Shown in pieces: positions 19,136-25,484 of a DNA stretch of 64,000 nucleotides (positions are counted from its first letter, which is position 1; every line of letters begins with the position of its first letter). The notes under the pieces were generated by a model. That model made no database searches. It saw only the letters and a program-made list of their open reading frames with translations, and was not told where the DNA came from. This DNA is from Picochlorum sp. SENEW3 (Eukaryota). The stretch spans positions 620,001-684,000 of the forward strand of contig CP120459.1 of NCBI GenBank assembly GCA_034226945.1. Reading direction: 5' to 3'. Position numbers and translations under genes: made by a program.

Positions 19136-20839
19136 ATGACAGGGCCTCAGTTACAAATTCAAGGAGAGCGTTTCAGTGGGCAAGACGTCCGCTCGCAAAA
19201 CACGACGGCAGCTTTGGCTGTTGCAAATGTTTTAAAATCTAGTCTTGGTCCAGTGGGTTTGGACAAGGTATGTTTGAATAGAGTGGCTGTTCAAAGTAGA
19301 CTGATTGACGGTGTTTGACGGTGTGGGACGCAGATGCTCGTGGATGACATTGGGGATGTGACAATAACAAATGATGGTGCTACAATATTGAAGTTATTGG
19401 AGGTGGAACATCCTGCGGCGAAGATTTTGGTGGAGCTTGCCGACCTTCAAGATCAGGAAGTGGGTGACGGGACAACGTCCGTGGTCATCGTAGCTTGTGA
19501 GCTGCTCAAGCGCGCGAATGAGCTCGTGAAAGCCAAAATACACCCTACGTCGATCATTAGTGGCTACCGTCTCGCTATGCGCGAGGCATGCAAGTATGTG
19601 AAGAACACACTGGCACGAGATGTGGGTTCTTTGAATGAAGCAGTGCTTTTAAATGCTGCCAAAACGTCCATGAGCAGTAAAGTGATCGGGGGGGACTCGG
19701 ATTATTTCGCATCTCTGGCAGTAGAGGCTGTTACATGTGTCAAGTCTATCAAAGACGATGGCAGAGTCCACTACCCAGTGGGTGCAATCAATGTGCTGAA
19801 AGCCCAGGGGAGGAATATGAGAGAAAGCAGGGTTTTGGACGGATACGCATTGAATTTAGGTCGAGCTGCTCAGGGTATGCCAAAACATGTGTCAAATGTG
19901 AAAATAGCGTGCCTTGATATGAACTTGCAGAAGGCACGCATGGCAATGGGAGTGCAAGTCTTGGTCACTGACCCTGCTGAATTAGAAAAGATTCGTCAAA
20001 GGGAAAGCGATATAACCAGAGAGAGAATCCAAAAAATACTGGATGCTGGTGCAAATGTGATACTGACAACGAAAGGAATAGATGATATGTGCTTGAAGTA
20101 TTTTGTAGAGGCGGGTGCTATTGCCTGCAGGCGGGTCGCACGTGATGACATGCGAAGAATTGCCCGCATGACCGGCGCGACAATTGTTTCTACTCTTGCG
20201 GATGATGAAGGCAATGAATCATTCGATTCAGAATGCCTAGGATCTGCTGAAGAAGTGTACGAGGATTCCATCTCTGACAATGATATGATTCTAATTAGAC
20301 CTCACTCGACAGCAGAGGCGAGAGCTGCAACTGTTTTGCTGAGGGGTGCGAACGATTACCTCTTGGATGAGGTTGATAGATCCCTTCATGACGCATTCTG
20401 TATCGTGAAAAGAGTGTTAGAGAGTGGAAAGGTGGTTCCAGGTGGCGGAGCTGTTGAATGTGCTCTCAGTGTGCATCTGGAAAGTTATGCAACCACCCTT
20501 GAGAGCAGGGAGCAATTGGCCATCGCAGAGTTTGCTGACGCATTGCTTGTCATTCCAAAGACATTGGCTGTAAACGCTGCTAAAGATGCAATCGAGTTAG
20601 TTGCAAAACTTAGAGCATACCATCACGCGGCACAGGAGGCTGGTCAAGGAAAAGAGCACTTGGCTGACTATGGGTTGGATCTAATCAATGGTGTGGTGAG
20701 GAATAATGTTGAAGCAGGAGTGCTAGAACCGATGCTTTCCAAGGTCAAGATGATTCAATTTGCGACAGAGGCAGCAATTACAATTTTAAGAATCGACGAT
20801 CTTATTCGATTGGATGAAGATGAAGAGCCACAGGAATAG
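19136..20839 (+). CDS. CCT1: T-complex protein 1 subunit alpha
   Basis: '[29 protein letters not shown]' and 'GDGTTSV'; intron 19268-19333. Confidence 0.95.
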
Positions 20840-21583: not shown

Positions 21584-21638
21584 CGCCATTAATGGCGAAT
21601 TGAATATTCAATGGCCAAATATTTGGCTTCTTGCAAGA
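21584..21638. repeat. Array of four perfect palindromes (14, 14, 14 and 10 bp) each separated by 1 nt
   Basis: CGCCATTAATGGCG, ATTGAATATTCAAT, GCCAAATATTTGGC, TCTTGCAAGA. Confidence 0.9.
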
Positions 21639-22040
21639 TTCCAGCATACTCATCCTTTACTAAAACAAACAAGTATCGAAATTTTTTGGTATCAGTGAAA
21701 TAACTAGGGTCAGTGAGCCCCGTGGCGAATTTGAGAATTTTCTTGAAAAAAGGACCACGGCGAGTGGGTTTCTCGAAACTATGACGAAGATCTGGCATTT
21801 TCTTCCGACTCAATAATGATTGTTATCCTCCCGTTCTTATTATCACTTTTTCGCAGACGATAGGTCCTCGTGGAGAATTTATGGAAACGAATTCCTCGCG
21901 CATTTCTAAGCGAGCGTACTTGATGTGGTGTTCGCACGATTTTTGCCATTCATTTGGTATCTTCTTTTGATTTTGGGTGCTTCTTGGAGAAAAACTCTTG
22001 TGTGCTAGGAGAAAGAAGCTCCGCCGTCGGAATAAAAACT

Positions 22041-22048
22041 TTAATATA
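22041..22048 (+). promoter_or_regulatory. TATA-like element upstream of the permuted tRNA
   Basis: TTAATATA about 45-50 nt upstream of the tRNA 3' half. Confidence 0.4.
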
Positions 22049-22090
22049 GGTCAAGAAATTCAAATGTGCAATTGCCCATGGGCATTAAAC

Positions 22091-22179
22091 AGGGAAAGGC
22101 CGGGAGTTCGAATCTCTCCAGAAGCACGAAGTTCTATTCTATGCTTCTGTAGTTTAGTGGTTATAATATTCCTTTAGTA
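22091..22179 (+). tRNA. Circularly permuted tRNA-Thr(AGU): 3' half (nt 38-73) at 22091-22126, 16-nt spacer, 5' half (nt 1-37) at 22143-22179
   Basis: Acceptor GCTTCTG/CAGAAGC plus A73; T arm GGGAG-TTCGAAT-CTCTC; T8 A9, A14 G15, G18 G19; anticodon stem TTCCT/GGGAA with loop TT-AGT-A|A. Confidence 0.9.
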
Positions 22180-22185
22180 GCACTC

Positions 22186-22190
22186 TTTTT
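22186..22190 (+). terminator. RNA polymerase III terminator (T5)
   Basis: TTTTT 6 nt after the 5' tRNA half. Confidence 0.7.
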
Positions 22191-22766
22191 GCATTGTATG
22201 ACCGGTAGATTAATTAATTCGTCCATGGCAAGGCCTCGATGACACATGTCTGATGACATGCAGTGTTTTGTTCTTCCATGGAATTCCCAATTGGAATACC
22301 TTGCAAGATATGCGACACAAGAGTCGTTACATGTTTTTTTCGGTTTTGATTTCTGTAGGCTGTACGAAGTACTGTTGATTGATTCATTGAACCATCAGCT
22401 ATCGCCAGGGTCTGAGCCAAGATCTTGCTTAATATGGATGCAAGGCCCCATCGTATGCCCATCATCTTGGAAGATTAGGCACATTACCAAGATTTTTTCA
22501 CAAGCAGAACTCTTCCCTGCTCATCAGCTTGCCTTTGGGCCGGACCAATACAGATGACGAGATAAGAATATACATTGTCATCAATGTCTATATAATTTAA
22601 TGTCCATCAAGAAGCAGATGACTGGGCAATTAGACAGTCAGTCTCACCCCAGAGAGGCCTCCAAACTGCCGCATCATGGGGCCATTCTTTTCTGGATGCA
22701 GCGCACGACATAATGCAGACGCAGTCGTAAATTTCGCTAGGTGTCCAATTTTAGCTACCCAAACAA

Positions 22767-23169
22767 TCAGCTACGAAACCGTCGAAGATGCTCCTGTAAC
22801 TCCCTCATAGAGCTAAAGCCCTGAAGTGTCAAGGGTGAGACAAACACTTGAGACATGTCCTTCACTATTCTCACCTTTGCTACTTCGTCCCTACATCTGC
22901 ATATAGTCATTACAGATGAAACAAAAGCCACAATGAATGGCCCCACAGGCGGTCAAAGTGTCGTACATGGCACAGGTGCTCATCTGCGACGCACATGAGA
23001 GGCAGAATACATGAGCACAAGGATCCAATAGCCCAATCATATCACTTGGAAAATCGCAATTTGAACAAAAGTATGAAGATTTCTTGGAATGCTGCCCGCC
23101 TGGTTCAGTATTATTGGGGCTTATGTTTTTCTCGAGTTGAGCCGAGAACTGTTCTCTTTCAGCATCCAT
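22767..23169 (-). CDS. HAKAI/CBLL1-like RING E3 ligase (m6A writer accessory subunit)
   Basis: 'YFCSNCDFP...GLLDPCAHVFCLSCA...CAI|CRDEVAKV'; one GTACGA..CAG intron. Confidence 0.7.
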
Positions 23170-23351
23170 TGTATTCTCTTTCTAGAAATCTTTTAATTTT
23201 CATATACTGGATTCGCAATATTGCAGACCTCTATCACAAATCATTTGCTTTATTTAATTCACAAATTAAGACAGTCTTGGATGGAGGGGTACAACTCATC
23301 ACAAGTGCCGAAGACGGCATCAAAACTTGGATACTAATAATCAAAATCAAA

Positions 23352-25484
23352 ATGTCAAAGGATGAGGTGAGGGTTTCCGGTGGTGCTATCGACAACGTCG
23401 AAATAATTCCACTGGGAGCTGGCCAGGAGGTGGGACGGTCATGCATTATCGTCAAGTACTTGGATAAGAGAATAATGATGGATTGTGGTATTCATCCTGG
23501 GTTCTCGGGGCATGCGTCGCTTCCATTTCTGGACCAAGTAAACCTTGCAGAGATTGATGTGATGCTGATTACACACTTTCACCTGGATCATTGTGCCGCT
23601 GTTCCCTTTGTTGTTGGCCATACGAATTTTAAAGGTAGAATATTTATGACTCATCCGACAAAGGCAATTGCACATACGTTACTCAAAGATTTTGTAAAAT
23701 TAAGCAAGTCTCAGAACTTCTTGTATGGGGATAAAGATGTGGAGGCTGCGACACAGAGAACAGAGGTGATCGACTTTCAGCAAACCATAGATATAGATGG
23801 AATCAAGGTAACGGCATATCGAGCCGGGCATGTTTTGGGTGCAGCGATGTTTATGGTGGAGGTTGCTGGAATGAGGTGCTTGTATACGGGGGATTATTCA
23901 CGCGTTGCAGATAGACATATGCCGGCAGCTGATTTACCAGTGAGTATGAGACCTGATATTGTCATTGTTGAATCCACATATGGTGTATCTCGCCACTTAC
24001 CACGGCGAGAGAGGGAGGAGAAGTTTGCCACCATGGTACATTCAACAATAGCAAAGGGTGGAAGAGTTCTCTTGCCTGTTGTAGCTCTTGGGAGAGCACA
24101 AGAGCTTTTATTGATTCTCGAAGAATATTGGTCGAAGCACCCTGAGCTCCATGGTGTGCCAATTTATCAGGCAAGCGGCCTCGCTAGGAGAGCTATGACA
24201 GTGTACAGGAGTTACATTGAGATGATGAATGATGATATCCGTGAAGCATTCACCACAGCCAATCCTTTCAAGTTCAAATATGTGACTCATTTAAAATCGA
24301 CAGGGCAATTTGATGATGTTGGGCCTTGTGTTGTGATGGCAACTCCATCAATGCTGCAGAGTGGAATGTCACGAGAGCTGTTTGAGAACTGGTGTGGGGA
24401 TGCTAGAAATTGCGTCGTGATCGCAGATTTTGCAGTTCAAGGAACATTAGCGCGAGATATTTTGTCGAGTCCAAGCGATATACTGTCTAGATCAGGAGCA
24501 CGCCTTCCATTGCGCTGTCAGGTGGATGCTATATCATTTTCTGCTCATGCAGACTTTCCACAAACTTCTGAATTTCTGGACTCGCTGTCTCCCCCACATG
24601 TAATACTTGTTCATGGCGAAGCAGCAGAGATGGGAAGATTGAAAAAGGCACTTGAACAACGCGCTGGAGCTCTTGGAATTTCCAGGACAGTGTACACACC
24701 AAAAGTAACTCAAGCTGTTTTAATTGCGCATGCCCCTCGTAGGACTGCACAAATCGTTGGATCTCTCGTTCAGGCAACAGAAATGGGAGTAGCAACAAAG
24801 AAAATACAAGGTGTCGCCGTGAAACGAGGAGCAAGCATTGCCATCATGAATCAGGAAGATTTGCCAAGATATACCAAACTCCACACAGGATCTGTCACCC
24901 AAAGACAATCCATAGCACTGCGGAGAGACTTTTCTGACGTTAGACTTGCCCTTGAACTTACATTTGATGATATCGCGGCAGTGGAATCTGCTCAGACTGA
25001 GCATGAAGTTTCACTCAGGATAGGAGACAGTGTCACAGTCACCCATAGCGCTGCTACAAAAGATAGAGTACTGCTTGAATGGCTCGGTGGCACAGAAGCC
25101 GATATGATTGCCGACGCTGTCATAGCTATGGTTTTGCAATCTGCAGGAGAACCTGCAGGTATCTGCGATGCAGAAGAACGAATGTTGGCCGCCATCAAAT
25201 CTGGAGACAACCAGGGTGCAGTACTCGCAGAAATGGGGCTGGTTTCCAAACTGTTGGATGCACAATTCGGTAAGACTAGAATAGACGAGAAACAAGGAAT
25301 AATATTTGTGGACGTAGACGGCAAGCATGTGATCCTAACAACAGACCTCGACACTGGTGATGTCGATATCAAATGTGCAGACACTCAACTCAAGGCAAGA
25401 GTGGAACGAGCAGTGTCTCGAATACATACAGCCGTCCATCCAAGCAAAATAATGATGCAAGACTCGATATCTCCAAAATTGTAA
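23352..25484 (+). CDS. CPSF3: Cleavage and polyadenylation specificity factor 73 kDa endonuclease
   Basis: 'PLGAGQEVGRSC', 'THFHLDH', 'AGHVLGA', 'FSAHAD' and 'LVHGE' (MBL/beta-CASP motifs). Confidence 0.95.
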   Translation: MSKDEVRVSGGAIDNVEIIPLGAGQEVGRSCIIVKYLDKRIMMDCGIHPGFSGHASLPFLDQVNLAEIDVMLITHFHLDHCAAVPFVVGHTNFKGRIFMTHPTKAIAHTLLKDFVKLSKSQNFLYGDKDVEAATQRTEVIDFQQTIDIDGIKVTAYRAGHVLGAAMFMVEVAGMRCLYTGDYSRVADRHMPAADLPVSMRPDIVIVESTYGVSRHLPRREREEKFATMVHSTIAKGGRVLLPVVALGRAQELLLILEEYWSKHPELHGVPIYQASGLARRAMTVYRSYIEMMNDDIREAFTTANPFKFKYVTHLKSTGQFDDVGPCVVMATPSMLQSGMSRELFENWCGDARNCVVIADFAVQGTLARDILSSPSDILSRSGARLPLRCQVDAISFSAHADFPQTSEFLDSLSPPHVILVHGEAAEMGRLKKALEQRAGALGISRTVYTPKVTQAVLIAHAPRRTAQIVGSLVQATEMGVATKKIQGVAVKRGASIAIMNQEDLPRYTKLHTGSVTQRQSIALRRDFSDVRLALELTFDDIAAVESAQTEHEVSLRIGDSVTVTHSAATKDRVLLEWLGGTEADMIADAVIAMVLQSAGEPAGICDAEERMLAAIKSGDNQGAVLAEMGLVSKLLDAQFGKTRIDEKQGIIFVDVDGKHVILTTDLDTGDVDIKCADTQLKARVERAVSRIHTAVHPSKIMMQDSISPKL

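Follow-up and report, generated by a model that had tools for sequence, protein, structure and literature searches.

Circularly permuted tRNA genes, which have the tRNA's 3′ half encoded ahead of the 5′ half, number 34 in Table 1 of a review whose available text also describes how they are expressed (PMC3978253). In the red alga Cyanidioschyzon merolae and in prasinophytes, experiments have established that a precursor is made, that its ends are cut at a junction motif and that the product is ligated into a circle, after which RNase P and tRNase Z remove the intervening sequence and CCA is added (PMC3978253). Because the A and B boxes of such genes stand in the wrong order, their transcription is believed to rely on a TATA-like element upstream, and the same text proposes that they originate by tandem duplication, with the outer segments then being lost (PMC3978253). 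In 2025, the tRNAscan-SE set of the green alga Auxenochlorella UTEX 250-A was found to be incomplete and permuted tRNA genes were then recognized in this genome, according to the accessible part of the publication (Plant Cell; PMC12636532).

Here we analyse a locus in a window of Picochlorum DNA (the whole 64-kb stretch under study) that was originally predicted, from its letters alone, to encode tRNA-Thr(AGU) in circularly permuted form, with the junction at 37/38. This core claim is strongly supported by a syntenic locus in another alga, by a compensatory base change between the two halves and by the retention of the splice-site context. We conclude, with a probability of roughly 0.88, that the locus is a functional circularly permuted nuclear tRNA-Thr(AGU) gene of type II (37/38), a reading that draws on sequence comparison. 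The sequence features that define the type II permuted tRNA genes of algae are present, the junction motif in a relaxed form. Its transcription, circularization, order of processing steps and modifications are proposed on the model of red and prasinophyte algae.

Layout and tRNA identity

On the forward strand, the gene begins with the 3′ half (nt 38-73 of tRNA-Thr(AGU); 22091..22126), continues with a 16-nt intervening sequence that loops the acceptor stem shut (22127..22142) and ends with the 5′ half (nt 1-37; 22143..22179). The 3′ half comprises the 3′ strand of the anticodon stem, the variable loop, the T arm, the 3′ acceptor strand and the discriminator A73, with CCA left unencoded; the 5′ half comprises the 5′ acceptor strand, the D arm, the 5′ strand of the anticodon stem and the anticodon loop through A37, with the anticodon AGT at 22176-22178. 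The intervening sequence is free of runs of four or more T, and between the halves there is neither promoter nor terminator, as is characteristic of algal type II permuted genes. A trailer on the same strand (22180..22190) consists of GCACTC and a run of five T (22186-22190) that starts 7 nt past A37 and is probably a Pol III terminator. The halves, the spacer, the anticodon, the T run and an upstream TATA-like box all lie in the sequence exactly where the original prediction had placed them.

When the halves are rejoined in the order 5′ then 3′, ARAGORN calls a tRNA-Thr(agt) of 73 nt, as had been expected of them, with 7/7 acceptor pairs, five pairs in the anticodon stem, seven nt in its loop and five nt in the variable loop. 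The canonical bases U8, A14, G18G19, A21, U33, A37, G53-T54-T55-C56, A58 and C61 can be read in the rejoined tRNA, as can the G15-C48 pair. A cytosolic eukaryotic tRNA-Thr(AGU) is identified by an AGT anticodon with U33 and A37, by the pairs G1-C72 and C2-G71 and by A73. All of these are present both in the window and in the orthologous locus described below. The D stem is imperfect (U13.U22 and G10.U25), and for the bare 73-mer the cloverleaf reaches −16.0 kcal/mol against −20.0 kcal/mol for the minimum-energy fold, with a z score of only −2.1. In the 20 longest open reading frames of the window, ACT and ACC together account for 219 of the 512 threonine codons, so the isoacceptor is one that the cell needs.

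In its native order the gene escapes detection. ARAGORN reports no tRNA in the whole 64 kb, also when introns are allowed, and no Rfam family reaches its gathering score in the native window. Across 21900-22400, a search at E ≤10 gave not even a partial match to the tRNA model; the weak matches at this threshold were to YrlA, GAIT, Ocean-V and RFPL3-AS1_2. Although the genome is compact, ordinary tRNA genes are absent from the 64 kb of the window, in which the permuted locus is the sole tRNA-like one.

How often such an arrangement might arise by chance was gauged by scans of both strands for a T arm (TTC..A) directly followed by a 7-nt strand with a perfect partner within 90 nt. This strict scan produced five candidates in the window and, with all junctions tried, ARAGORN called a tRNA at one of the five, the permuted locus. 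Relaxing the scan to 6/7 acceptor pairs, a looser T loop and a spacer of up to 120 raised the number of candidates in the 64 kb to 462, and ARAGORN again made calls at the permuted locus alone (1/462). Across 40 dinucleotide shuffles of the window there were 214 candidates and a single ARAGORN locus in all. At ≤3 mismatches, either half has a single occurrence in the window, with 0 expected by chance, and neither a second Thr(AGU) copy nor a further permuted tRNA gene was found in the 64 kb by matching of the halves or by the relaxed scan. The permuted arrangement is thus unique in the window and beyond chance.

As ARAGORN accepts many junctions at the locus (441 constructs in the strict scan), it does not by itself decide where the junction lies. 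Joining g22180 to 22092, at 38/39, likewise yields a 73-mer, and the ligation point, placed at 37/38 by analogy with described genes, is formally ambiguous with 38/39.

Genomic setting and assembly support

The neighbouring open reading frames are eukaryotic nuclear genes, encoding the chaperonin CCT1 (19334-20839), the cleavage factor CPSF73 (22995-25484), a Twinkle-like helicase, a P4-ATPase and myosin XI. The CCT1 frame shares 99% identity with proteins of Picochlorum sp. BPE23 and P. renovo and ~76% with those of Auxenochlorella, Micractinium and Chlorella. The DNA of the window is therefore Picochlorum nuclear DNA, in agreement with the original prediction, which had guessed a Picochlorum-like trebouxiophyte. 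Counted from its first ATG, the CCT1 frame encodes 501 aa, compared with 545-547 aa in the named Picochlorum proteins that nearly match it, and an additional short exon upstream, set off by an intron, is probable.

We compared 21600-22800 with contigs assembled from four public runs (X2, X12, X16 and X17), a type of data that shows small RNAs poorly. Contigs from the DNA run X2 cover 21683-22115 and 22129-22429, and those from X12, which is probably also DNA, cover 21867-22126 and 22169-22485. These contigs from other studies confirm the order of leader and 3′ half (X2 21683-22115; X12 21867-22126) and that of spacer, 5′ half and trailer (X2 22129-22429); 22116-22128 is bridged by no contig of either run. 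The unitig breaks inside the tRNA may reflect 31-mers that recur elsewhere in the samples, in another Thr tRNA copy or in other organisms, or they may reflect filtering of the records.

Within 21600-22800, the contigs of X16 (marked ‘RNA?’) cover 22339-22624 and 22760-22800 only, and X17 gives no coverage. None of the four runs shows a joint in this interval. The two X16 stretches have a word depth of 86-382 and lie 5′ of the start of the CPSF73 frame at 22995; they may represent its 5′ untranslated region or come from an unannotated transcript of the tRNA-CPSF73 interval.

An orthologous locus in a related alga

We scanned metagenomes for a T loop and a 3′ acceptor strand followed, after 1-31 nt, by the 5′ acceptor strand. 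The single match was a 1,436-bp contig, L001, in which pattern scan and alignment place a 3′ half of 36 nt at 1348-1313 and a 5′ half of 38 nt at 1282-1245, both on the reverse strand. The halves are separated by a 30-nt spacer that is unrelated to the 16-nt spacer of the window. As in the window, ARAGORN finds no tRNA in the native contig; rejoined, the halves give a tRNA-Thr(agt) of 74 nt. About 1 kb downstream, L001 encodes the N terminus of CPSF73, with 28 of 39 residues identical to the protein in the window (E 2e-13). Because CPSF73 lies downstream in both cases, we regard L001 as the orthologue of this locus in an alga that is related but clearly distinct.

The two tRNAs differ at seven positions, none of which breaks a pair. 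Three differences fall in the 3′ half (nt 42, 47 and 59), and the 5′ half differs at nt 13, 22 and 28 and by one additional D-loop base. Pair 28-42, the sides of which belong to different halves, is U-A in the window and C-G in L001 and is thus compensatory, and pair 13-22, which is U.U in the window, is C-G in L001. The additional D-loop base, nt 47 and nt 59 are differences confined to loops. When the permuted structure is laid on the alignment of the two sequences in native order, 53 of 54 cells are paired, compared with 47-57% when the partners are slid by 1-3 columns. As two sequences only were compared, a shuffle control for covariation was uninformative (232/500). Together these patterns suggest that the stems have been maintained across species as those of a tRNA, by selection. 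At closer range, a contig of a related strain in X12 has 13 differences from the window over 21867-22126 (16 further differences lie outside those listed), and none of the listed differences falls inside the 3′ half.

The same pattern has no match in 596 Gb of prokaryote genomes, and a pattern composed of the leader and the 3′ half has none in the prokaryote genomes or in a viral collection. The only match in the viral collection to the tRNA-half pattern, L002, was rejected as a false positive: it is an ordinary pair of adjacent Cys and Asn tRNA genes in a phage tRNA array. This array holds seven tRNAs in 3 kb, and tRNA-Cys and tRNA-Asn abut without a spacer (L002:1448-1602), the 3′ acceptor strand of the former being complementary to the 5′ acceptor strand of the latter. 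ARAGORN sees both genes of this true tandem pair.

Processing site

Outside the mature tRNA, conservation between the window and L001 is confined to the last nine bases of the leader, the first two bases of the trailer and an upstream 10-nt block; the spacer and the remaining flanks are unalignable. The precursor leader, as delimited by a constrained fold and the comparison with L001, spans 22066..22090 on the forward strand. Its positions −9 to −1 are identical to those of L001 at eight of nine sites, and trailer bases +1 and +2 (GC) are identical. A small hairpin is predicted in the leader by the constrained fold (22073-22084, forward strand), and the L001 leader has a hairpin of other sequence in the same place.

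The conserved bases are those that would form the processing site. With the cloverleaf arms enforced, leader TTAA (22085-22088; −3 to −6) pairs with nt 32-35 of the anticodon loop as a 4-bp helix in both precursors. In the constrained fold, A22089 and C22090 (leader −2 and −1) form with A38 a 3-nt bulge that contains the predicted 3′ cleavage site, and leader GTGC (22066-22069) is complementary to trailer GCAC (22180-22183). Trailer +1 and +2 (GC) pair with leader −8 and −9 (C22083, G22082) in the window and in L001. The 37/38 introns of eukaryotic tRNA genes are typified by a bulged 3′ site and by a pair between nt 32 and position −3, which serve as a recognition feature for the endonuclease. 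At the 5′ site the bulge is of 1 nt (A37 in the window, U36 in L001) rather than 3 nt, and the modelled junction motif is a relaxed bulge-helix-bulge, not a strict one.

Six pairs in the leader/trailer region are present in both sequences and are invariant, so this helix shows no covariation. Two changes in the related-strain contig of X12 bear on it, both in a single contig at depth 6: T>C at 22085 turns G35.U into G-C, and A>T at 22084 would shift the 1-nt bulge as in L001.

Upstream elements

A TATA-like, AT-rich box, TTTAATATAG (22040..22049, forward strand), lies 42-51 nt 5′ of the 3′ half and includes TTAATATA at 22041-22048. The original prediction had pointed to such a box upstream and to the T run downstream, and both are there (22040-22049 and 22186-22190); a TATA-like sequence within ~50 bp upstream combined with a downstream T stretch is what algal type II genes have. 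The box itself is weakly conserved: L001 aligns with it through a different, less TATA-like sequence, and the related-strain contig of X12 carries A>C at 22043 and G>C at 22049. By analogy with the genes treated in the available text of the review, we consider it a candidate upstream Pol III promoter element (PMC3978253).

Closer to the gene, a 10-nt block, CAAGAAATTC (22052..22061, forward strand; 30-39 nt 5′ of the 3′ half), is kept in L001 with an identical sequence and at a nearly equal distance from the 3′ half (29 versus 28 nt). Among the listed differences of the X12 related strain this block is unchanged, with changes beside it at 22049, 22062 and 22064. Its conservation suggests that it is probably a promoter or start-site element, and it may carry more weight than the AT-rich box.

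Proposed maturation pathway

Every sequence requirement of the pathway known from C. merolae and prasinophytes can be recognized at the locus, the junction motif in a relaxed form, and we propose that the gene would be expressed as follows. A single Pol III transcript would start 3′ of the 10-nt block and the TATA-like box, run through the leader, the 3′ half, the 16-nt spacer, the 5′ half and the trailer, and stop at the T run. Its halves would fold as a cloverleaf whose acceptor stem is capped by the spacer loop. Pairing of the leader with nt 32-35 of the anticodon loop (nt 32 with leader −3) would create the 3-nt bulge at the 3′ site, which would then resemble that of an ordinary 37/38 tRNA intron. 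The tRNA-splicing endonuclease could thus remove leader and trailer, and tRNA ligase would join A37 to A38 to give an 89-nt circle, from which RNase P and tRNase Z would excise the spacer before CCA is added. Deamination of A34 to inosine would allow the tRNA to read ACU and ACC.

Origin of the permuted gene

L001 retains what appears to be the outer 3′ half of an ancestral pair. Its 5′ half is followed by 25 bases that can be aligned, in colinear order, with nt 38-64 of the 3′ half of the same contig, with 18 identities that include a run of 10/10 in the T arm. The match is significant by shuffling (p 0.0008), two of 15,990 control 25-mers score as high, and local alignment gives p 0.004. A semi-global alignment over the whole 36 nt gives p of only 0.066, because the acceptor strand of the remnant is gone. 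The T5 run of L001 sits after this decayed half, ~40 nt later than that of the window. In a computed fold the remnant trailer (L001:1190-1244, reverse strand) forms a long hairpin of ~15 bp right before the T5 run.

Vestiges of outer halves were not found in the window, whether the upstream sequence was compared with the 5′ half (p 0.46) and the downstream sequence with the 3′ half (p 0.16) or anchored tests were applied to the outer 5′ half (p 0.94) and the outer 3′ half (p 0.96). The leader of L001 gives a weak signal of an outer 5′ half in its match to nt 11-37 (p 0.048), which the pairing requirement partly explains. A decayed outer 3′ half in L001 and none in the window is the pattern that the tandem-duplication model predicts. 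[quoted passage not shown] An orthologous pair of which one member is clean and the other retains a decayed outer half offers direct comparative evidence on the origin of permuted genes.

More tentatively, and at clearly less than even odds, several of these observations may belong together: Picochlorum could depend on the permuted gene alone for its essential tRNA-Thr(IGU), the gene could be one of several permuted genes that explain the small tRNAscan-SE counts in the genus, and the permutation between CCT1 and CPSF73 could predate the split between Picochlorum and the L001 lineage. If so, L001 would be a caught intermediate of the pathway of outer-half loss, and the model could be tested across Chlorellales genomes. 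Nuclear tRNAs counted by tRNAscan-SE number 42 in P. costavermella and 24 in the SENEW3 assembly, according to the accessible text of one genome paper (PMC6141220). Because standard annotation overlooks permuted tRNA genes, Picochlorum genomes have probably been annotated with a tRNA set that appears incomplete. Picochlorum species are chassis strains for biotechnology, which makes the completeness of their annotation relevant.

Alternative explanations

A tandem origin also allows for a different outcome, in which the locus is a relic without function, left from the inner parts of a tandem pair of ordinary tRNA-Thr genes, and the tRNA is supplied by a normal Thr(AGU) gene at another site. The tandem arrangement did exist, as the decayed 3′ half after the 5′ half of L001 indicates, but erosion has struck the outer half, which is decayed in L001 and gone in the window (p 0.96), and has spared both inner halves in each of the two diverged lineages. 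All seven differences between the tRNAs are neutral for pairing or improve it, one compensatory pair across the halves included, and the splice-site context in leader and trailer was kept while the spacer diverged. Contigs of the runs marked RNA cover no part of the gene, which would suit a silent locus, although contigs show small RNAs poorly. The unitigs of two DNA runs break within the gene, and its words could recur elsewhere in the samples, as they would if a normal copy existed. On balance we consider a relic improbable.

Another reading is still harder to sustain, namely that the RNA is tRNA-like and serves in another role, as a mimic of the Y-RNA/YrlA kind or as a cis-element of the CPSF73 gene. 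YrlA is the top Rfam match over 22065-22198, and its tRNA-like domain has the same order of T arm, acceptor and D arm; at 16.6 bits and E 1.1, against a gathering score of 69, the match is not significant, and the order of the arms alone is its likely reason. Both lineages have kept the anticodon stem, in which the compensatory change sits, U33 in a 7-nt loop, the AGT anticodon and A37, features for which a mimic would have no use. The contigs of X16 (‘RNA?’) begin only at 22339, well downstream of the gene. We therefore regard this reading as very improbable.

A mis-join or a collapse of repeated tRNA copies in the assembly can practically be dismissed: no single X2 or X12 contig spans 22116-22128, but DNA contigs from other studies confirm the joins of leader to 3′ half and of spacer to 5′ half to trailer, and the same order, with another spacer, recurs in an unrelated contig of another organism from a metagenome. 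The reading of the locus as a functional permuted tRNA-Thr(AGU) gene is the one that we carry into the comparison with described systems.

Comparison with known systems

The original prediction held that the gene might extend permuted tRNAs to a new lineage. For the trebouxiophytes as a whole this did not stand, and the claim of novelty is weakened, because a 2025 paper had already described permuted tRNA genes in the trebouxiophyte Auxenochlorella (available text, PMC12636532); for Picochlorum no report was found in the literature searched. A literature search that combined permuted tRNA with Picochlorum, Trebouxiophyceae, Chlorella, Nannochloris and Chlorellales returned only the Auxenochlorella paper (PMC12636532), judged on the accessible portions of the records. 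In their available text, Picochlorum genome papers treat tRNAs only as tRNAscan-SE counts or as organelle genes, a 2026 review of tRNA repertoires in photosynthetic organisms lists permuted genes only for O. tauri, B. natans and red algae, and the PlantRNA 2.0 preprint lists them only for rhodophytes.

Auxenochlorella UTEX 250-A belongs to the same class as Picochlorum (Trebouxiophyceae, Chlorellales), and its tRNA halves are likewise ‘organized in reverse’; the example given in Fig. S1 is trnP-UGG, and the genus is a different one (accessible text, PMC12636532). The permuted tRNA-Thr(AGT) gene of C. merolae shares with that of Picochlorum the type II 37/38 junction, the lack of an intron, a TATA-like box and a T stretch, and differs in having an intervening sequence of 24 bp rather than 16 bp and a circular intermediate that was demonstrated experimentally, whereas that of Picochlorum is predicted from sequence (Soma et al. 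2007, as given in the available text of PMC3978253). As C. merolae is a red alga, an independent origin of the two genes is likely.

The permuted genes of Ostreococcus, Micromonas and the Bigelowiella nucleomorph also belong to the green lineage; in the available text of the review they have a 37/38 junction in 20 of 21 cases, an ambiguous AT-rich upstream region and intervening sequences of 5-64 bp, a range that includes the 16 nt of Picochlorum (Maruyama et al. 2010, as given in PMC3978253). Their isoacceptors differ, being Ser, Leu, Cys, Arg, Asn and iMet and never Thr in Table 1 of that text (PMC3978253), and Ostreococcus and Micromonas are Mamiellophyceae, a class other than that of Picochlorum. 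Thermofilum pendens likewise places the 3′ half ahead of the 5′ half (PMC3218864, PMC3978253, both in their accessible parts). This organism is an archaeon, with a 59/60 junction, an encoded CCA and intervening sequences of 1-7 nt (available text, PMC3978253).

Ordinary 37/38-intron tRNA genes resemble the Picochlorum gene in the position of the cleavage site, the pairing of nt 32 with −3 and the 3-nt bulge at the 3′ site. In the permuted gene, however, the ‘intron’ corresponds to the two ends of the transcript, so that splicing would yield a circle and not a linear tRNA, and box A and box B stand in the reverse of their order in ordinary tRNA genes. The picture of how permuted tRNA genes work is unchanged by this locus. 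On the available text of the published reports, Picochlorum is the second trebouxiophyte genus with a permuted tRNA gene, and, as far as our literature search reaches and with Auxenochlorella known by its trnP-UGG example, the gene described here is the first permuted Thr(AGU) of a green alga.
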